Source: Bacillota bacterium (GTDB taxonomy: Bacteria; Bacillota; Sulfobacillia; JABLXB01). From it: a stretch of 64,000 nt of DNA. The notes beneath the pieces were generated by a model. That model searched no databases, had not been told where the DNA came from, and worked only from the letters and a program-made list of their open reading frames with translations. Where the stretch lies: NCBI GenBank assembly GCA_013178305.1, contig JABLXB010000001.1, positions 140,203 through 204,202 of the forward strand. Reading direction: 5' to 3'. Positions 13,897-64,000 of the stretch are shown in pieces. The position numbers and the translations under genes are program-made. Every line of letters starts with the position of its first letter. Position 1 is the stretch's first letter.

Positions 13897-13912
13897 TGCA
13901 AGGAGAATGCCA
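13897..13912 (-). promoter_or_regulatory. sigma-54 (-24/-12) promoter TGGCAT-TCTCC-TTGCA upstream of dehydrogenase paralog 2
   Basis: The minus strand reads TGGCATTCTCCTTGCA with GG and GC separated by exactly 10 nt. This is about 15-45 nt upstream of the candidate start codons. The adjacent gene encodes a sigma-54 activator. Confidence 0.6.
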
Positions 13913-14108: not shown

Positions 14109-15866
14109 TCAGTCTTCCAGCAGCCTATAGATGGTCTGGCGCGACACTCCCAACAGATTCGCGGCTCTCCTCTTATTGCCCCCTGTCAGTTTCAGCGTCT
14201 CCATGACCGCTTTCCTATTGGTATCCATTTGCTCCTTTTGGCTGATGAATTTACGTCCCGCAGGATGCAGTCCTGACACAAGCAAATCGTCCTCGGTGAT
14301 GTACTTCCCTTTACAGACGCAGAGAGCCCTGGATAGCGTGTTCTCCATCTCCCTGGCATTACCCGGCCAGCTGTGGAGCGACAACACCCTCCTGGCTTTG
14401 GGGTCTATTCCCTCTACCTCCTTGTTGATCGCTTTGCCCAGTTTCTTCAAGAAGGAATCGGCCAGAACCTGGATATCCTCTCTCCTCTCTCTCAGAGGAG
14501 GTATGCTAATATAAAGTACCTTAAGTCTGAAGTACAGGTCGGCCCGGAACTTCCCGTCCCTGACCATCTCTTCAAGGTCCCGGTTGGTTGCCGCGATTAC
14601 CCTGACATTAACGAAGAAGGGTTTACTTCCACCGATTCTGGTAATGCTCGTGGTTTCGAGAACCCTTAAGAGTTTGGCCTGCAAGTGGATCGGCATTTCG
14701 CTTACTTCATCGAGAAACAGGGTCCCACCGTTGGCGAGCTCGAACTTTCCTGGTTTGCCACCTTTTCTGGCGCCGGTGAATGCCCCCTCCTCGTAGCCAA
14801 ACAGCTCACTATCGATCAGTTCGTTGGGGAAGTTGGCACAGTTGACGGCAACAAAGGGCTCCGACTTCCGGGCGCTGTAATTGTGGATGGCCTGGGCAAA
14901 GAGCTCTTTACCGGTTCCACTCTCGCCCTGTATTAATATGTTCGCTGTACTCTGCGAAAAGGTTTTTGCCAGGGATATCCTCTCTTTTATTGCCGGGCTT
15001 TCGCCGATTATGTCGTCAAATCTGAACGTCGCTTCATACCCTGCAATGGTGTTGGCCAATTTCCGGGAACGTTTCATGCTTCTGAATATATCAATGGCGC
15101 CAATGATGTTCCCCGAGTCATCAAAGACGGGGTAACCGGAGTTATACAGATGCATCGCATTGCCTTTGAACTTCAAAAAATACTCATAATCCACGATGCT
15201 CGTTTTCTTATTCAGGATTTTGAGCAAGAAGGAATTCGTGACGAATTCGTCAATGCTTCTGCCTATGAATTCTTCCCGTGGCGTTTTTGTCATCTCGCAG
15301 CACATTTTGTTAACGTAAACGAATCTGCCGTCTTTATCGCACGCGGAGATTCCATCTTCAATATGATCAAGGAAGCGCACAAGGAGCTCATATTTCTTTT
15401 CGGCGTTGTACTTGTTAACCACTGCTGCAATGTCATTGATGTTCTTAGCGGTGTTCACCAGGAATTTTGGGATGTCGTCCTCTTCTTTGTCTGTTGCGAA
15501 GCACAAATAGTAATCTAAACCCTCTTCTTCCCCCGATTTATGATAAAAGTACAAGATGACCTTCCCAGGCTCATTTAAATCCCTGACGAATTTCGCGACT
15601 GTATCGGAATCAATCTTCGGCTTATACGATATGTCGAAGCATTTCCCTACCAATTCCTTCAACTGCGGTTTATCTTTAGCATGTACGGCAAGGATCGTGA
15701 AACTGCGGTCCAGGAGTAGAAGGCAAGAGTCTTTCCCACACATGGTCATGAGGCAGGATAGACCAAAACAGTCTGTCAATACGCGTCTTCCTGTATCAAT
15801 GGCCCTTTCCACAACATCCTTGGCTATCGCTGAGTAGAGAAATCGAATGACAACATCGTTGAGCAT
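14109..15866 (-). CDS. sigma-54-dependent transcriptional activator with N-terminal sensory/PAS region, AAA+ sigma-54 interaction domain and C-terminal Fis-type HTH (RocR-like)
   Basis: Contains GESGTGKELFAQAIH and GAFTGA sigma-54 interaction motifs. The C-terminal HTH reads RRAANLLGVSRQTIYRLL. The gene is about 45% GC against about 65% in its neighbours. Confidence 0.85.
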   Translation of the reverse strand: MLNDVVIRFLYSAIAKDVVERAIDTGRRVLTDCFGLSCLMTMCGKDSCLLLLDRSFTILAVHAKDKPQLKELVGKCFDISYKPKIDSDTVAKFVRDLNEPGKVILYFYHKSGEEEGLDYYLCFATDKEEDDIPKFLVNTAKNINDIAAVVNKYNAEKKYELLVRFLDHIEDGISACDKDGRFVYVNKMCCEMTKTPREEFIGRSIDEFVTNSFLLKILNKKTSIVDYEYFLKFKGNAMHLYNSGYPVFDDSGNIIGAIDIFRSMKRSRKLANTIAGYEATFRFDDIIGESPAIKERISLAKTFSQSTANILIQGESGTGKELFAQAIHNYSARKSEPFVAVNCANFPNELIDSELFGYEEGAFTGARKGGKPGKFELANGGTLFLDEVSEMPIHLQAKLLRVLETTSITRIGGSKPFFVNVRVIAATNRDLEEMVRDGKFRADLYFRLKVLYISIPPLRERREDIQVLADSFLKKLGKAINKEVEGIDPKARRVLSLHSWPGNAREMENTLSRALCVCKGKYITEDDLLVSGLHPAGRKFISQKEQMDTNRKAVMETLKLTGGNKRRAANLLGVSRQTIYRLLED

Positions 15867-51716: not shown

Positions 51717-54026
51717 TCAGGGGAGTTCACTTTCGATGATCTGGGAGAGGATCAGCACCTCGTCGTCCGGTACCTTGAGTTCGAAGCTGCTCTCGACGTG
51801 AGCCAGCGCGCACCGGACCTGCTGCGCCAGCAAGCCCTGCAAGTCGTCGGACCCGATGTGCCTCGATGTTGCCGCACCCTCGATGGAGCCCGAGGATTTA
51901 CGCGTTACGAGCCTCTCGAGCATGCAGGCCGTATGGACCATCAGGCGGACCCTCACTGCCTTGCTGAAACTCCTCCCGAGCCCGCTTTCCAGGGTTCGCA
52001 CAAACGTCTCGGCCTCCGAGAGCGCCTTGTGGGGGTTCAGGAAAACCATGCTGTCCAGTAGCGTGTCCATAGTCAGGCTGCCAGCCATTGAGAACTCGTA
52101 CGTGTCCATGCGGGCCGGGTCGAGTCCAAGCAAGTCCACGAGCTCTTTCAGCCCGTCTCCCATGACGAGGTCTTCAACCGGGATGAACGGTACTCCGGGA
52201 AGCCTCGGGTCCACGCTCCCGATAGCCGCGACCACGCCGCAGGGATTCAGGTATCCGGAATCCAGGAGTCTGTCTATACCGCGCTCACCACAACACACTA
52301 CCGACACACTATCGCCGAAAATGCTTCTCAGCGTGTCGCGGATCCTCGCCGCGGCGCCCTCCCCCGAGTAGCAGGTGGCGAGGATTACGGGCTTGCCGGC
52401 GGCCTGTCGCGACGCCTGGTACCCGGCGTATTCCCCCATTGCCGAGATGAGAAACCGCGTGAGGTAAACCATCTCCCTCGCCGGCATCTCAACCCCAAGG
52501 TCTTCCTCGAGCCCCCGAAGTACTGTCTCGGCGGCCGTACGCTGGGCCGGCGTGGCTGCGGCGGGGAATTCCTCAGCAGGGCCGGCAGAATCCAACCGGC
52601 CGATCGCAGCCGCGAGGTGAAGCGCGAGCCGGAGGTGGTGCGCCGAGTCGAACGTGACGCCGAGCAACCCCGAGGCGGACTCGAGTGCCCGGGTCGTCGC
52701 TCGCCTGATGTGGCCCGGGACCAGGTATTCCACGAGCCCAGCCGCGCCCGAACGGGCTTTCCGCTGCAGGGTGGAGCGGCCATCGGTCTCGAGATGCTCG
52801 ATGACGGATGAAAACGCCTCGTCCATCCTTGCGCCGCTATCCATCATCTGAGACAATTCGTTGAGGATGTTCCGCTGCGAGACGCCCTGCGGGAGGCCGG
52901 GCCTTACGGTTAGCGGCTCCGAGCCGTCGCCCGCGTCCCTGGCCGCACCGACGCAGACTACTCTCCTGCCCGCGCCCGACTTCAGCAGCGCTTTCGCGAC
53001 AGCGAGCTGGATCACGCTGCGCAGATGCCCCAGGTTGCCGTCGCCGCGGAAATCCACCCACCTGTCGAAGGTCACCTGATCGACCGAGACCGGCCTACCG
53101 AGGTGGTCGGCCTCCCTGGCCAGGAGGTGCCTGACGACCAGGACCCTTTCCCCCACCGACCAGTCACCGAACGCGGGCATGTTTATCAGCACGGGGACTC
53201 GCCTCAGGAACGTCTGGAGTAGGGCTGAGTCCGGAACCTCGGTGGTGCACGATATGATGGTCACGCCGGCGCGGCGCTCCTGCCGCGACTCCCCTACTCT
53301 ACGGTAGATCCCCGAGTCCATGAGCAGGAACAGCATTTCCTGGGCGGATGGCGGCAGGCGGTGAACCTCGTCTAGCAGGAGAATCCCGCCGTCGGCCCTC
53401 TCGATGAGTCCGGCGCGGTCGCTGTCCGCCCCGGTGAAAGCCCCCTTGACGTGGCCGAAAAGGTGGCTCGCGAGCAATTCCTCGTTCCTCGCGTATTCCG
53501 CGCAGTTGAACACGACGAGCGGGGCGCTGGGCGGCAGCGAACCGGATTGAACCGCGAAATCGTGCATAGCGTGGGCGAGCATCGTCTTGCCGGACCCCGT
53601 CGGCCCGGTGATAAGCGTGTGCAGCCCCCCTGGGTAGATCATCGCGGCCTTGGCCTTCTCGACGACTACCTGCAGCGTTCCGTCATATCCGATTATCTTC
53701 CGGAACGCCTCTGGCTGGTCGCTGTGGACACCGGGCCCGGACGTGCCCAGCTGCCGGGCGTGTCCGCCCGGGCTCGCCTGTTCACCCCGCGCCGCCGCGC
53801 CGGCAGCCTGATCCTTACCGGCTGCGGCCAGGTCAAACCTGACCGGTCGCCCCGCGGACTTTACGAGACTCCCTTCAGCACACAGCCGGTTGAGTTCGCG
53901 GCTCGCGTTTTCCCTCGAGATCCCGCAGCGTGCCGCCACCTCGACGGCGGTTACCCCGGAGAACCCCGGCCCCCCGCCTGCGCGCAATTCCGCTATCACG
54001 TTCGTTACCCTTTGCCTGCGCCTCAC
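51717..54026 (-). CDS. levR: LevR-type sigma-54-dependent PTS operon activator (HTH, AAA+ sigma-54 domain, PRD and EII-like regulation domains)
   Basis: GPTGSGKTMLAHAMH Walker A and GAFTGA sigma-54 contact motif; 769 aa with PRD-like repeats. Divergent from the mannose-family PTS operon. Confidence 0.85.
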   Translation of the reverse strand: MRRRQRVTNVIAELRAGGGPGFSGVTAVEVAARCGISRENASRELNRLCAEGSLVKSAGRPVRFDLAAAGKDQAAGAAARGEQASPGGHARQLGTSGPGVHSDQPEAFRKIIGYDGTLQVVVEKAKAAMIYPGGLHTLITGPTGSGKTMLAHAMHDFAVQSGSLPPSAPLVVFNCAEYARNEELLASHLFGHVKGAFTGADSDRAGLIERADGGILLLDEVHRLPPSAQEMLFLLMDSGIYRRVGESRQERRAGVTIISCTTEVPDSALLQTFLRRVPVLINMPAFGDWSVGERVLVVRHLLAREADHLGRPVSVDQVTFDRWVDFRGDGNLGHLRSVIQLAVAKALLKSGAGRRVVCVGAARDAGDGSEPLTVRPGLPQGVSQRNILNELSQMMDSGARMDEAFSSVIEHLETDGRSTLQRKARSGAAGLVEYLVPGHIRRATTRALESASGLLGVTFDSAHHLRLALHLAAAIGRLDSAGPAEEFPAAATPAQRTAAETVLRGLEEDLGVEMPAREMVYLTRFLISAMGEYAGYQASRQAAGKPVILATCYSGEGAAARIRDTLRSIFGDSVSVVCCGERGIDRLLDSGYLNPCGVVAAIGSVDPRLPGVPFIPVEDLVMGDGLKELVDLLGLDPARMDTYEFSMAGSLTMDTLLDSMVFLNPHKALSEAETFVRTLESGLGRSFSKAVRVRLMVHTACMLERLVTRKSSGSIEGAATSRHIGSDDLQGLLAQQVRCALAHVESSFELKVPDDEVLILSQIIESELP

Positions 54027-54092
54027 TCACACATCACCGCACACTCCCGCCGGACTGCGGACATCGCCCGGGGTCCTCGGATGACACACTAT

Positions 54093-54110
54093 CCGGCATG
54101 TCTCTTGCAA
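54093..54110 (+). promoter_or_regulatory. candidate sigma-54 promoter CGGCAT-GTCTC-TTGCA for the PTS operon (alternative: CGGCAC-TGTGC-CGGCA at 54257..54274)
   Basis: GG-N10-GC geometry with a consensus TTGCA -12 element. The second candidate has a better -24 and lies nearer the start. Confidence 0.35.
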
Positions 54111-54320
54111 CTGATACTCGTCAATACGTCGCACCGGCACGAGGAAGCCGCAGGCCTTCGAGTCTGCGTCGAGTTTACGCCGAGTTCACAGCGGGTTCAC
54201 GTCGTCCTTTGCGTTACTCTCAGCATAGCATTGTGCGCGGATGACACACAAGCATCCGGCACTGTGCCGGCACAGGCCGGGGCGCATGGCGAACCTTTGA
54301 CTCAGGGGTGAGGTCTTACG

Positions 54321-54728
54321 GTCAGCGTCGTCGTCGTCAGCCATGGACCGCTAGCGGGAGCGCTCGTCAAGAGCCTCCGCATGATCGCCGGACAGGTCCC
54401 GGTCCATGCGATCGAACTCGAACCTGGTGAGAATGGAGACAAGATACTCGGGGAGCTCGAGAGGATATCCTCAAACAGCCCGGACGGAACCCTCGTCCTG
54501 GTCGACGTCTTCGGTGGGACCCCGTTCAACGCGTCAATGCAGCTGATGCGCGGCCCGTCGGTCGAATGCGTTTCGGGAGTCAACCTCCCGATGCTGCTCG
54601 AAGTGGCAATGGCCCTTCAAGGCGGGACGGCGGACAGCCTCGATGCCCTGGCGCGGATGGCCGCGGAGTCGGGTAAGAACGGCATCAAGAACGCCCGTGA
54701 GAGTCTATCCCCGGCTGGGGGGAGGTGA
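54321..54728 (+). CDS. PTS mannose-family EIIA component; no canonical start codon upstream of the phospho-His
   Basis: In-frame translation gives (stop)GLTVSVVVVSHGPLAGALVKSLRMIAGQVPVHAIEL...VDVFGGTPFNAS, aligning with IIA-Man (IVIGTHG...). The first ATG/GTG/TTG in frame is ATG 54381, after the SHG His. A GGGGTGAGG RBS sits 7 nt before GTC 54321. Confidence 0.55.
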   Translation, partial: VSVVVVSHGPLAGALVKSLRMIAGQVPVHAIELEPGENGDKILGELERISSNSPDGTLVLVDVFGGTPFNASMQLMRGPSVECVSGVNLPMLLEVAMALQGGTADSLDALARMAAESGKNGIKNARESLSPAGGR

Positions 54729-54735
54729 AATCCGT

Positions 54736-55221
54736 TTGTTTTCTCTGGTACGTATCGACGACAGGCTTATACACGGGCAGGTCGTGACAATGTGGGTACG
54801 GCAGGTCAACGCCAACGAGATATGGGTCGTTGACGACACCGTGGCGGCCGACAGTTTCACCCAAAGCGTTCTGCAGATGGTGTGCCCCAAGGAGGTCGCG
54901 CTTTCGGTACTGTCCCTGGCAGGGGCGGCGGAGCAGCTGGCGGCGGCACAGGCCGCGTCAACACGAAGGCTCCTCGTACTGGTGAAGCGCCCCTCAGTGG
55001 TGCTGAAGCTGATGGACGCAGGGCTCAGATTGACGGAGGTCAATATCGGCGGAATGGGCGCAGGCCCTGGGCGCAAGGGCTTCTACAGGTCGGTTTCGGT
55101 CAGCCCGGAAGACGTGGCCGATCTGAGAGCGCTGACCGGGAGAGGGGTCCGTGTGTACATCCAGGGAATACCCACAGATCCGGTCTTCGATGTAGGTAGA
55201 GCGCTGGCCAACTGGCAGTAG
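54736..55221 (+). CDS. PTS mannose-family EIIB component
   Basis: From TTG 54736 (GGAGGTG RBS) the product starts MFSLVRIDDRLIHGQVVTMW, the classic IIB-Man N-terminus. Confidence 0.8.
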   Translation: MFSLVRIDDRLIHGQVVTMWVRQVNANEIWVVDDTVAADSFTQSVLQMVCPKEVALSVLSLAGAAEQLAAAQAASTRRLLVLVKRPSVVLKLMDAGLRLTEVNIGGMGAGPGRKGFYRSVSVSPEDVADLRALTGRGVRVYIQGIPTDPVFDVGRALANWQ

Positions 55222-55248: not shown

Positions 55249-55992
55249 ATGTTTTTCCAAGCCGCCCTCGTAGCAATAATCACCTGGGTGGTCGCCACGT
55301 ACCTGCCCATGAGCGTGCGCTGGGCACTGTACTTCGGCGGCCCACTGATGGCAGGACTCATCGACGGTTTGATCTTCGGTAACGTCCCGCTCGGACTGCA
55401 AATCGGCGCCACGATCCAGATGGCTTACGTTGGTCTCGTGGCCGCGGGTGGAACGCTCCCCTCCGACCTGGCCCTCGCCGGTTACCTGGGAGTGGCGCTC
55501 GGGATCATCGCCAACGCCACCCCCGAGGTTGCGATGACACTGGCAGTCCCCCTCGGGCTGCTCGGGTTGCTCGCGTTTAACACCCGCATGACCCTGAACG
55601 CGTTCTGGGTGCACAAGGCCGACGAGTACGCCGAGAAGGGCGATACGCGCGGTATCATCCTGATGAACGTCGTGTGCTCGCAGATCTTTCCGTTCCTCGT
55701 GTATGTTCCGACCACCTTCCTCGCGATCTACTATGGTAGCGGCTGGGTAAACACGGCGCTCACGCAGCTCCCCAAGTGGCTCATCGATGCGCTCAAGGTC
55801 ACCGGCGGGCTGCTCCCCGCGCTCGGTCTCGGCATGCTCCTGAAGTTCCTGGCCAAGCCGGGCCTGATACCTTACCTGTTCCTGGGCTGGGTCATGGCCA
55901 CCTACCTCAAGATGGACGTAATGGCCGTGGCCATTGTCGGCGCGTGCATCGGTGCCTTAAGACTATACCGCGAACGCGAGAAGGCAGCGTAA
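55249..55992 (+). CDS. PTS mannose-family EIIC component
   Basis: AAGGAGGT RBS; about 248-aa polytopic membrane protein following EIIB. Confidence 0.8.
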   Translation: MFFQAALVAIITWVVATYLPMSVRWALYFGGPLMAGLIDGLIFGNVPLGLQIGATIQMAYVGLVAAGGTLPSDLALAGYLGVALGIIANATPEVAMTLAVPLGLLGLLAFNTRMTLNAFWVHKADEYAEKGDTRGIILMNVVCSQIFPFLVYVPTTFLAIYYGSGWVNTALTQLPKWLIDALKVTGGLLPALGLGMLLKFLAKPGLIPYLFLGWVMATYLKMDVMAVAIVGACIGALRLYREREKAA

Positions 55993-56007
55993 AGGGGGGT
56001 AATGAGG

Positions 56008-56823
56008 ATGACCGAAAGAAAGACGCTGGACAAAGTCACACTACGGAAGTCGTTCCTGTGCTGGCTATTCTTCCTGCAGACAAACTACAACTTCGAGCGC
56101 CTGCAGTCGCTCGGCATATGCCATTCCATGATTCCGGTGCTCACCAGGCTCTACCAGAAGAAAGAGGACCTGGTCGCCGCCCTGAAGCGTCACCTCACGT
56201 TCTTCAACACCGAACCCACGTGGGGCTCCATGATACCCGGCCTCTGCGCCGCCCTTGAAGAGGAGAGGGCTAACGACCAGCCGATATCGGACGAGATGAT
56301 CAACTCCCTCAAGACCGCGCTCATGGGGCCGCTGGCAGGCATCGGTGACACCATTACCCAGGGCCTGATGAAGACCGTCTTCCTCGCGATCGGCATCGAC
56401 CTCGCCATCAAGGGCAACGCGATGGGCCCCGTGATCTTCTTCCTTCTCATGAGCGGGTATGCCATCGGCGTGAGCTGGTTCATGTTCTACACCGGCTACA
56501 GGCTCGGCAAGAACGCGATACAGCAGATGCTCCAGAGCAACATCCTAGATCGGGTGACGTCGGCGCTGTCAGTGCTCGGGCTCATGGTGACCGGAGCGCT
56601 TGCCGCGGGCCGCGTAAGCCTCCAGACCCCGGTCAAGTTCACCATCGGGAAGACGGCGGTCGCGCTGCAGCCGATCCTGAACCAGATCATGCCCGGCCTG
56701 CTCGGGTTGGCGTTTCTCCTCATCGTGTGGCAGTGGCTGAGGAAGGGCGTCTCTCCGGTCAGGGTGATCGGCTACATCTTCGCGATCGGGTTCGCGTGCA
56801 GCCTGCTCAAGATACTGGCGTAG
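56008..56823 (+). CDS. PTS mannose-family EIID component
   Basis: SFLCWLFFLQTNYNFERLQSLGICHSMIPVL is a typical IID N-terminus. Confidence 0.85.
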   Translation: MTERKTLDKVTLRKSFLCWLFFLQTNYNFERLQSLGICHSMIPVLTRLYQKKEDLVAALKRHLTFFNTEPTWGSMIPGLCAALEEERANDQPISDEMINSLKTALMGPLAGIGDTITQGLMKTVFLAIGIDLAIKGNAMGPVIFFLLMSGYAIGVSWFMFYTGYRLGKNAIQQMLQSNILDRVTSALSVLGLMVTGALAAGRVSLQTPVKFTIGKTAVALQPILNQIMPGLLGLAFLLIVWQWLRKGVSPVRVIGYIFAIGFACSLLKILA

Positions 56824-56826
56824 GGA

Positions 56827-57630
56827 GTGAAGCGATTGGATTTCGGGAAAGTGTTCGGCACTGAGAAGCCCATCATAGGGCTGGTCCACCTCCCACCGCT
56901 GCCGGGGGCGCCAAAGTTCGAGGCTGGAACCAGGATGAAGGACCTGGTGAAGACGGCGGTCAAGGACGCGAAGGCTCTCAAGGAAGCCGGCTTTGACGCG
57001 ATGATCTTCGCCAACGAGGGTGACTACCCGTACTCCAACCCGGTCGGGCTCGAGACTGTGGCTGCGTACGCGCGTATAGCCACCGAAGTGATAGACAAGG
57101 TCAAGATGCCGTACGGCGTCGGCTGCCTGATCGACCCCAAGGCGACGTTCGCCCTCGCGAGAGCGCTCGACGCCCAGTTCGTCAGGACGTACATGTCCGG
57201 TGTGTTCGCCAGCCTGTTCGGACTCGAGGTGTTCAACCCAGGCGACATCGCGCGCTACATCAAGAGCATAGATGCGGGTTCGATCCCAATGTTCTTGAAC
57301 CTCACGCCGCACGCCGGCACATCACTCGACAAGCGCGAGTTCCTATCGCTGATAGACGGGGCCCTGTTCATGCTCGGGCCCGAGGTCGTGCTGATGCCAG
57401 GCCCGCGCGCGGGGCTCCCGCCGGACCTCGCGCTGCTCAAGGAGGCCAAGAAGAGATATCCCAAGGTGAAGATCATGGTCTCCAGCGGCGTAACTCCGGC
57501 CAACGTCAAAGAGGCGCTGGAGTACGGAGACGGCATACTCGTCGGGACCAACGTCAAAGTCGACGGCTACATCTTCAACCCGATCGACCCGGCGAGGTGC
57601 GAGGCGTTAATGAAAGCCGCGGGGCGGTAA
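56827..57630 (+). CDS. sgcQ: BtpA/SgcQ family TIM-barrel protein
   Basis: IIGLVHLPPLPGAP N-terminus and GADAMIFANEGD, typical of BtpA/SgcQ. Last gene of the PTS operon. Confidence 0.7.
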   Translation: MKRLDFGKVFGTEKPIIGLVHLPPLPGAPKFEAGTRMKDLVKTAVKDAKALKEAGFDAMIFANEGDYPYSNPVGLETVAAYARIATEVIDKVKMPYGVGCLIDPKATFALARALDAQFVRTYMSGVFASLFGLEVFNPGDIARYIKSIDAGSIPMFLNLTPHAGTSLDKREFLSLIDGALFMLGPEVVLMPGPRAGLPPDLALLKEAKKRYPKVKIMVSSGVTPANVKEALEYGDGILVGTNVKVDGYIFNPIDPARCEALMKAAGR

Positions 57631-62476: not shown

Positions 62477-63748
62477 TCAAGCAGCCAGGGAGAAGCGGGC
62501 AAGGGCCGCTTCGGCCACTCTCTTTATCCCGAGCATGTAGGCCGCTATTCGCAAGGAACATCCCATTTCGCTCGAGACGGCCCAAACCTCACCGCAGGCC
62601 TTTCCCATCAGGTCCTCGAGCCTCGCCATTACGTCACCGAGCGACCATTGCAGGCACTGAAGGTTCTGGACCCATTCGAAATAAGACACCATCACCCCGC
62701 CGGCATTAGCCAGAATGTCAGGGACAACGACTACGCCCTTGCCATTCAGGATTTCGTCGGCACCAAAGGTAGTGGGGCCATTTGCTCCCTCGACAATGAT
62801 CCTGGCTCTCACGTCGCCGGCGTTGGATTCCGTTAATTGGGCCTCAACCGCCGCAGGGATGAGTACGTCGACGTCCAGGGTAAGGATCTCATCCCCTGTG
62901 ATCTGGCGGACGCCCGCTGATTCATACCCCTCCAGTAACCCGGATGTCGTACTCGACACGTAGCCCAAAAGATCCGGGATATCGAAACCTCCCTTGAGAT
63001 AAATGGCCTCCGAGACATCGCTCACTGCAACGATCCTGCAACCGGCATCGTGAAGGAACTTCGCCGCCCACGACCCAACCTTGCCGAAGCCCTGGATTGC
63101 CACCGTACACCCTGCGGGGTTCTTCCCTGCCCTGCGGAGCGCGTGCAGTGCGACAGACGCGACGCCGCGCCCGGTTGCCTCTCTTCGCCCATGTGAACCG
63201 CCCAGCACCAACGGCTTGCCCGTAACGCTCGCCCGTGACCAGACGGCTCCGCCCTGAGCCAGTTCATCGACGATCCAGGACATGACTCTCTCATCCGTAT
63301 TCACGTCTGGAGCAGGAATATCCACCTGAGGCCCGATGAGTGGACCCATCATTCTCGCATAGTTCCTGGTCAATTGCTCCAGTTCAGGTTTCGACATACT
63401 CCTGGGGTCACAGGAAATGCCACCTTTGGCTCCTCCATAGGGTAGGCCGACTACGGAGCATTTCCATGTCATTAGCGCGGCAAGAGCCCTTACCTCGTCC
63501 AGGTCCACACTGACGTGATACCTGATCCCCCCCTTGTAGGGGCCCCGAACGCTGGAGTGCTGCACGCGATAACCCTGGAATGTCCTCAGAGTCCCATCGT
63601 CCATGACAACGGGGACTGTGACTGCGACCTCCCTCTCCGGGGAGGCGAGGAGGGTACGGAGACCCGGATCGAGCCCCAATTTTGTGACGGCGCTCTCATA
63701 AGCCAGGTTGACGCTTTCCATAAGGGCATTACCAGCCAGACCGATCAC
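62477..63748 (-). CDS. gdhA: Glu/Leu/Phe/Val dehydrogenase family (glutamate dehydrogenase-like)
   Basis: Catalytic-lysine region LPYGGAKGG and Rossmann motif GFGKVGSWAA; 423 aa. Confidence 0.85.
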   Translation of the reverse strand: MIGLAGNALMESVNLAYESAVTKLGLDPGLRTLLASPEREVAVTVPVVMDDGTLRTFQGYRVQHSSVRGPYKGGIRYHVSVDLDEVRALAALMTWKCSVVGLPYGGAKGGISCDPRSMSKPELEQLTRNYARMMGPLIGPQVDIPAPDVNTDERVMSWIVDELAQGGAVWSRASVTGKPLVLGGSHGRREATGRGVASVALHALRRAGKNPAGCTVAIQGFGKVGSWAAKFLHDAGCRIVAVSDVSEAIYLKGGFDIPDLLGYVSSTTSGLLEGYESAGVRQITGDEILTLDVDVLIPAAVEAQLTESNAGDVRARIIVEGANGPTTFGADEILNGKGVVVVPDILANAGGVMVSYFEWVQNLQCLQWSLGDVMARLEDLMGKACGEVWAVSSEMGCSLRIAAYMLGIKRVAEAALARFSLAA

Positions 63749-64000
63749 CCCCGACCTGTGACGTCAATGAAACCGGTTCCGGTCCAATAATAACGGCAGG
63801 ACCGTGAAAACCGCATAAAAAGGCCACGGGTCGACGTAAAAAAGGCGTGAAAAACCGGGAAATGAGGAAAGGAATCTGGTGGTGGACAGGCTCAGGCGGT
63901 GCTGGGCGCGGCAAAGGAGTACCCGATGCCAGGGCTCGATAGAATGATCCTGGGGTTTGAAGGATCAACCTCGATTTTCAGCCGGAGGTGGCGAATGTAC

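Follow-up and report, generated by a model that had tools for sequence, protein, structure and literature searches.

How is a gene translated when its reading frame is intact and the codon at which translation should begin appears to be missing? The question is raised by a PTS gene encoding an EIIA-Man protein (hereafter IIA) in the 64-kb stretch of DNA analysed here, to which we refer, at its full length, as the window. Inspection of the IIA frame, and comparison of the locus with independent assemblies, with a diverged sister lineage and with database homologues, lead us to propose that the EIIA-Man gene is intact and is probably translated from the near-cognate ACG codon at 54318-54320.

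The IIA reading frame and its surroundings

The region in question (54300-54360) reads ACTCAGGGGTGAGGTCTTACGGTCAGCGTCGTCGTCGTCAGCCATGGACCGCTAGCGGGA. Within it, the IIA frame runs TGA (54309-54311) GGT CTT ACG (54318) GTC (54321) AGC GTC GTC GTC GTC AGC CAT (54342) GGA CCG CTA GCG GGA, which translates from the stop codon onwards as GLTVSVVVVSHGPLAG. Read codon by codon from TGA 54309 to CAT 54342, the codon of the phosphorylatable histidine, the frame contains no ATG, GTG or TTG, in agreement with the claim of an earlier, sequence-only reading of this DNA that no canonical start precedes the histidine; this absence is a deterministic observation in which chance is not at issue. The same reading had placed the GTG at 54308-54310 in the -1 frame relative to IIA, and this is indeed where it lies. 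The earliest canonical codon in frame is ATG 54381, Met22 if ACG is counted as codon 1, and the product called from it by automatic gene callers (P0001/P0243) has 115 aa and is devoid of the histidine.

The frame was also said to encode a conserved IIA N-terminus, inclusive of an SHG motif, and profile and structure comparisons bear this out. IIA matches the family profile PF03610 (3e-19; 69.7 bits for a cut-off of 21.4) as well as TIGR00824 (5.6e-23; 81 bits, which is under the 98-bit subfamily cut-off), positions 1-112 of the latter corresponding to IIA residues 1-108 and the ACG codon to profile position 1. The match to the E. coli IIA-Man structure 1PDO (1.2e-17) spans IIA residues 1-127 and likewise begins at residue 1. 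Counted from ACG, SHG occupies residues 8-10, aligns with the THG of ManX, in keeping with its identification as the phospho-histidine site, and is invariant in the alignment of homologues.

Directly 3' of IIA lie the genes for IIB, IIC and IID (PF03830, PF03609 and PF03613), in an order that is shared by the L010 and L012 assemblies described below; the IIB protein of the window is NPV69207.1. The divergently encoded regulator matches the Pfam families Sigma54_activat (4e-39) and PRD (2e-11) and, at 2e-109 but under its cut-off, the NCBIfam model DagR. With an adjacent activator carrying sigma-54-interaction and PRD domains and a -24/-12 promoter-like element upstream, the operon is of the LevR type. 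The element, CGGCATGTCTCTTGCA, is kept as TGGGCATGAATCTTGCT in L010/L011 and is the probable promoter of the operon, which would imply a 5' UTR of ~195 nt; promoter-like sigma-54 matches show no enrichment in the window as a whole (4 found, 2.8 expected). The longest ORFs of IIC and IID begin at GTG 55243 and ATG 56002, each only 3 nt past its Shine-Dalgarno (SD) core, and ATG 55249 (at 9 nt) and ATG 56008 (at 8 nt) are the likelier starts in that they fit the spacing rule better.

A number of other features of the operon's upstream region and of the window at large deserve mention. A direct repeat, GGATGACACAC, is found at 54079-54089, just 5' of the sigma-54 promoter, and again at 54239-54249, 160 nt downstream in the 5' UTR, where another promoter-like sequence, CCGGCACTGTGCCGGCA (54256-54272), comes after it. 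In strain L009 the substitution C54257T turns part of CCGGCACTGTGCCGGCA into a perfect TGGCAC, and in L010/L011 a GACGACACACAA box is retained ~85 nt before the start while the second promoter is not. The repeat and CCGGCACTGTGCCGGCA could be a duplicated promoter or operator. Elsewhere, a perfect sigma-54 consensus, TGGCATTCTCCTTGCA (13897-13912, minus strand), lies just upstream of a minus-strand gene ending at ~13885 and probably marks a second sigma-54-dependent unit in the window. Between 14001 and 16000, an interval that spans a 585-aa minus-strand ORF (14109-15866), the GC content falls to 0.487, compared to ~0.62 elsewhere; this interval may be horizontally acquired DNA.

The locus is represented in several other assemblies. 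One of them (L012, run SRR6186653) matches the window without a difference over 6.3 kb (100% identity). A different strain from a different run (L009, SRR22746119) departs from the window at 8 of 1456 nt (99.45% identity). Of these mismatches, the 5' UTR carries three and IIB one; the other four fall in IIA, where three are synonymous and one exchanges Leu for Ile, and the segment from the SD to the histidine codon is free of them. L010 (SRR21993103) and L011 (SRR6986903) represent a second lineage with ~70% nucleotide identity to the window (63% and 77% protein identity for IIA and IIB, respectively), in which the LevR-like gene, IIA, IIB and IIC are arranged as in the window. Their start region reads GGAGGTGA AGC CAA ACG GTT AGC (G/A)TT GTT ATA GCA AGC CAT GGA; it has no canonical start before the histidine and, as in the window, consists of an in-frame TGA inside the SD, 6 nt, ACG and GTY. 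Searches of GTDB species genomes, of 5.8 billion proteins (queried with both IIA and IIB) and of JGI metagenome contigs yielded no further members of the clade, of which two lineages only are thus known. The next relatives share 49% identity or less and reside in non-orthologous operons. The coordinates of all these features are compiled in Table 1.

Table 1. Features of the IIA operon and of the IIA start region, in window coordinates.
Feature	Position	Strand	Remarks
LevR/DagR-like sigma-54-dependent activator with PRD, 769 aa	51717..54026	-	Divergent from the IIA operon
Sigma-54 -24/-12 promoter-like element CGGCATGTCTCTTGCA	54094..54109	+	One mismatch to TGGCAY-N5-TTGCW
Shine-Dalgarno GGGGTGA (GGAGGTGA in L010/L011)	54305..54311	+	Last three bases are the in-frame TGA closing the upstream frame
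Proposed EIIA-Man CDS	54318..54728	+	136 codons plus TGA; domain matches; pN/pS 0.31 relative to L010
ACG, proposed initiation codon (codon 1)	54318..54320	+	Identical in the window, L009, L012, L010 and L011
GTC, conserved Val2 (GTT in L010/L011)	54321..54323	+	Candidate start of the sequence-only reading
CAT, phosphorylatable His	54342..54344	+	His9 from ACG, His10 of E. coli ManX; alignment to 1PDO/1VRC
ATG, first canonical in-frame start (Met22)	54381..54383	+	Choice of the gene callers; CTG in L010/L011, hence unconserved
EIIB, sorbose/mannose family	54736..55221	+	TTG start 10 nt past GGAGG core
EIIC (to 55992) and EIID (56002/56008 to 56823)	55249..56823	+	Same operon as IIA
BtpA/SgcQ-family gene	56827-57630		Next after EIID, same operon

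Homologous starts, ribosome-binding site and selection

Where the IIA protein should begin can be read from its homologues. In 66 of the 102 database homologues with a recognizable [STGAC]HG motif the histidine is residue 9, and ACG lies 8 codons before CAT. The nearest homologues of full length (P0003, P0004 and P0008, of the MVGIVIVSHG type) have their Met1 where the frame has the Thr of ACG, and GTC/GTT corresponds to the second residue, a conserved Val or Ile in homologues of this type. When IIA starts were compared, ACG was recovered in the sister lineage, and GTG or ATG at the homologous codon in the nearest outgroups; ACG thus stands at the homologous start position and departs from ATG by one base. 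In E. coli ManX, the histidine is residue 10, and alignment to this protein puts Met one codon further upstream, at CTT in the window and CAA in L010, codons that appear neither plausible nor conserved as starts. Shortening of the protein ahead of the histidine was seen among 120 database homologues in two gene calls only, which are the two IIA calls that a protein search retrieved from this clade, both truncated at the N-terminus; everything else in the protein database was no closer to IIA than 45% identity. A canonical start precedes the histidine in each of 23 distant EIIA-Man loci, all those where it was located by the motif search (a 24th locus, L008, was left out as a false motif match); the lack of such a start is therefore specific to this clade.

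The ribosome-binding site points to the same codon. The aligned SD block is invariant across all lineages, and its GGGGTGA register is both the best in pairing with the anti-SD and the sole one retained in the diverged lineage. Measured from the GGAGG-core position, ACG lies at 9 nt, GTC at 12 nt and CTT (CAA in L010) at 6 nt in all three distinct sequences. Among the 34 genes of the window with an unambiguous SD and a canonical start, spacing is 7-10 nt in 27 and 12 nt in a single one; the 9 nt found for ACG in all lineages is thus a functional spacing. The sequence-only reading had described a ribosome-binding site, GGGGTGAGG, 7 nt before GTC. A weaker GAGGT register does exist there in the window, whereas the conserved, best-pairing register leaves GTC at 12 nt.

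Comparison of the window with L010 by the Nei-Gojobori method revealed saturation of synonymous sites in both IIA and IIB (pS 0.72-0.79) and a pN/pS ratio of 0.31 for IIA overall. In IIA codons 1-21, from ACG to just before ATG 54381, pN is 0.185 and pS 0.54 (ratio 0.34); from codon 22 to the end, the values are 0.235 and 0.76 (ratio 0.31). N-terminal codons that differ synonymously only include GTC/GTT (three times), GGA/GGT and CTC/CTG. As judged from these substitution patterns, the 21 codons that precede the first canonical ATG are shown to be under protein-level purifying selection like the rest of the gene. No stop or frameshift interrupts IIA in any of the 5 assemblies, and polymorphism within each lineage is mostly synonymous (three synonymous changes and one Leu-to-Ile between the window and L009; three synonymous and two non-synonymous changes between L010 and L011). 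Neither relaxed selection (pN/pS near 1) nor an accumulation of stops and frameshifts, as expected of a pseudogene, is apparent. The internal starts chosen by gene callers are not homologous to one another, the ATG of the window being CTG in L010 and the GTG of L010 being GCC in the window. A short IIA beginning at ATG 54381 was considered and rejected: it would lack the histidine and beta-strand 1, its start codon is CTG in L010, and it has no usable SD, the best SD-like match (GGGAG) being weak (score 12) and 19 nt away, beyond functional range.

The 6-nt spacer between the SD and ACG differs at 4 of 6 positions between the two lineages (GGTCTT and AGCCAA), and ACG is unchanged. With two lineages known, the conservation of the triplet is suggestive and statistically not strong, the chance of its retention at saturation being ~3-6% by our own estimate. 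We also note a 20-nt block, AGCCATGGACCGCTAGCGGG (54339-54358, codons S H G P L A G), that does not vary between the two lineages although synonymous sites are saturated, and that includes a 10-nt palindrome, CCGCTAGCGG, and an out-of-frame mini-ORF, ATG GAC CGC TAG, that lacks an SD. The block was dismissed as a special element; a run of 6 identical codons is non-significant given the 46% codon identity at conserved residues.

Proposed initiation at ACG and its alternatives

Taken on the spacing to the histidine, the alignment with Met1, the spacing to the SD and the invariance of ACG beside a varying spacer, ACG is to be preferred over GTC as the initiation codon. According to the scheme that we propose, the change of an ancestral ATG or GTG to ACG would predate the divergence of the two known lineages, both of which would have kept the codon. 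With a good SD at the usual distance of 9 nt, ACG would come to lie in the ribosomal P site and be read there by the ordinary initiator fMet-tRNA, whose anticodon, CAU, mismatches it at the middle position; proofreading by IF3 would cut the frequency of initiation to roughly 1% of that at AUG. The shared sigma-54/LevR-controlled transcript would consequently yield far less IIA than IIB, IIC and IID. Use of ACG as the start, insertion of Met at it and selection for the resulting low IIA output are steps that we infer from comparative sequence data. Phosphorylation feedback on B. subtilis LevR is established, and the low IIA level may be kept by selection, e.g., for the tuning of IIA/IIB phosphorylation feedback onto the LevR-type regulator.

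Experimental precedent for such initiation comes from E. coli, where CAT reporters read with native tRNA-fMet yielded 48 and 78 units from ACG and 7314 and 7838 from AUG, i.e., ~0.7-1% (PMC3643588), and where Met was the N-terminal residue of GFP initiated at ACG (bioRxiv 10.1101/063800). Few near-cognates are as weak as ACG in this organism. AUG-to-ACG changes serve routinely as start-codon knock-outs, and ACG is absent from the Table 11 list of seven start codons. A literature search for natural bacterial ACG starts returned eukaryotic, viral and organellar cases only. When every strong SD in the 64-kb window was screened for orphan SDs before coding ORFs, no other ACG 5' end came to light, and on present evidence the ACG start would seem to be gene-specific rather than part of a genome-wide change in initiation rules. 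The window contains no tRNA genes, no Rfam family matches 53950-54450 at E<=1, and in no lineage do the 86 nt around the start fold more stably than shuffled sequences (z = +0.9, -0.4 and +0.35).

Foremost among the alternatives is a silenced gene, in which an ATG-to-ACG change abolished the start, IIA is essentially unmade, and the transporter is either dead or served by an EIIA-Man encoded elsewhere, the ORF being as yet undecayed. The ~0.7-1% of AUG initiation afforded by ACG in E. coli (PMC3643588), the experimental use of AUG-to-ACG changes to abolish starts and the fact that gene callers do not recognize the full IIA ORF would all accord with this scenario, which we nevertheless regard as unlikely. 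The same ACG occurs in two lineages at synonymous saturation, ahead of an ORF free of stops and frameshifts whose low pN/pS extends to the 21 codons that precede any canonical start; both lineages have kept the SD, at a spacing that is functional; and IIB, IIC, IID and the regulator are intact. Silencing in the common ancestor is disfavoured because the selection pattern and the intact ORF persist in both lineages, and the argument from selection could be evaded only if the same T-to-C change had recently removed the start in each lineage independently. A related proposal of the sequence-only reading, inactivation of IIA by mutation of a GTG start to GTC, is rejected on account of the purifying selection on an ORF without stops or frameshifts and of the identity of GTC/GTT as codon 2: as it corresponds to the conserved Val/Ile2, position 54321 was never a GTG. 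Non-canonical initiation, which that reading also entertained, is on the contrary supported, with the amendment that homology and SD spacing make ACG 54318, and not GTC 54321, the most likely codon. Initiation at GTC itself (GTT in the sister lineage) has in our view a small chance of being correct. In its favour, the weaker GAGG(T) register at 54310-54314 lies 7 nt before GTC, in the window only, and GUY has two bases in common with GUG; against it, the initiator anticodon would have to tolerate two mismatches with GUC or GUU, L010/L011 (GAAGCC) lack the GAGG register, the conserved SD imposes the 12-nt spacing encountered in 1 of 34 window genes, and the codon is accounted for as Val2, homologues having Val or Ile right after the start.

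Recoding, either through a start at the -1-frame GTG 54308 with a prfB-like +1 shift within the next four codons or through read-through of the TGA by an upstream ORF, is extremely improbable. Although the GTG overlaps the TGA (G-TGA) in both lineages, and its frame in L010/L011 stops after five codons (GTG AAG CCA AAC GGT TAG) over IIA codons 2-3, loosely like a stop-stimulated +1 site, this GTG lies within the SD and has none of its own at usable spacing; in the window its frame runs on for 40 codons, past the supposed shift site, before it meets a stop. No slippery motif is common to the two lineages, whose four codons between the GTG and the junction are different, and re-pairing from GGU to GUU/GUC would be poor. 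Of the three hallmarks of a prfB-like frameshift, namely an RBS of its own, a conserved slippery codon and a stimulatory stop, the last is found, in L010/L011 only. As to read-through, L010 has no in-frame canonical start with an SD upstream of the TGA, and TGA is the normal IIA stop codon in both lineages. The chance that a sequencing or assembly artefact, be it a wrong start-codon base or a 1-nt indel, explains the locus is negligible. The source is a metagenome-assembled genome, and single-base errors do happen; the error that had earlier been put forward as a third possibility can nevertheless be rejected because independent runs and strains and a diverged lineage show the same start region, L012 and the separately sequenced L009 being base-identical to the window here and the two further runs of L010/L011 displaying the same stop-N6-ACG-GTY design. 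Finally, ACG might be an efficient start in this clade, owing to C-to-U editing at 54319 or to a variant of IF3 or of the initiator tRNA that relaxes discrimination; this we hold to be very improbable. The likely CTG start of IIB in L010/L011 and the possible one of the gene at 63739 are a faint hint of relaxed stringency.

The observations on these two genes are as follows. In L010 (2615-2641) and L011 (1260-1286), the codon that matches the IIB start of the window, TTG 54736, is CTG, 10 nt past GGAGG; the next canonical codon, a TTG, lies at 19 nt from the SD, and a protein begun there would have only 2 residues ahead of the conserved RIDD motif. On these grounds, IIB of L010/L011 probably starts at CTG, in which case two consecutive genes of the operon may use non-standard starts. 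The window gene 62477-63763 (minus strand) has a strong SD, GGGGGTGATC, with CTG 63739 located 8 nt on (63730-63760). The only canonical codon nearby, GTG 63748, sits within the SD, a layout similar to that at IIA, and CTG 63739 is a possible start of this gene.

Relation to known systems and significance

Near-cognate starts are known to throttle bacterial expression, as do the AUU codons of E. coli infC and pcnB, and CUG, AUU, AUC and AUA belong to the starts of Table 11. As in infC and pcnB, a good SD is followed in IIA by a single-mismatch codon that occupies the homologous start position and that, to judge from the two known lineages, has been kept in evolution, and reading by normal initiator tRNA, disfavour by IF3 and low output are proposed here for ACG. 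Unlike these genes, its codon has the mismatch in the middle position and falls outside Table 11, and the autoregulatory logic of infC has no evident equivalent at IIA. The ACG reporters of E. coli (PMC3643588; bioRxiv 10.1101/063800) share the codon and provide the mechanistic precedent (native tRNA-fMet, N-terminal Met, ~0.7-1%), whereas they are engineered constructs in a proteobacterium and IIA is a native gene of an uncultured Bacillota lineage. In plant organelles, genomic ACG starts are restored to AUG by C-to-U RNA editing (e.g., PMC12548569, PMC2430205). The resemblance to IIA lies in a genomic ACG exactly at the conserved start of an intact, selected gene; the difference lies in the PPR-DYW factors that organellar editing requires. 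Bacteria are not known to possess a C-to-U mRNA editing system. Editing at the IIA ACG is a formal possibility only, and nothing in the data points to it.

At the protein level, IIA resembles the IIA domain of E. coli ManX (1PDO/1VRC) in its fold, with an N-terminal beta-strand followed by the phospho-histidine, and the locus resembles the sigma-54-dependent Lev system of B. subtilis (LevR) in its IIA-IIB-IIC-IID operon, its divergent sigma-54 activator with PRD and its -24/-12 promoter. It differs from both in that IIA has no canonical start, that a BtpA/SgcQ-family gene follows and that the regulator is DagR-like under the NCBIfam cut-off. Two features recall prfB, an SD near the site and a 0-frame stop over the junction, the latter confined to L010/L011; the upstream frame has no usable start, no slippery codon is conserved and the window lineage has no stop there.

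Annotation pipelines accept ATG, GTG and TTG and, rarely, CTG, ATT, ATC and ATA as starts, with the result that IIA is either cut to 115-117 aa without its active-site histidine or dropped; in protein clusters, NCBI-sourced members are present for IIB and none for IIA. The gene is in this respect a clean test case for the prediction of starts by homology and SD spacing as opposed to a fixed codon list. The scope of the finding is narrow, covering one gene in two uncultured lineages. Near-cognate start codons are already known, and ACG is not an accepted bacterial start. If confirmed, the ACG of IIA would be a natural, evolutionarily maintained bacterial start at a codon otherwise treated as a null allele, and would also demonstrate translational throttling of IIA in a LevR/sigma-54-regulated PTS in which IIA/IIB phosphorylation feeds back on the regulator.
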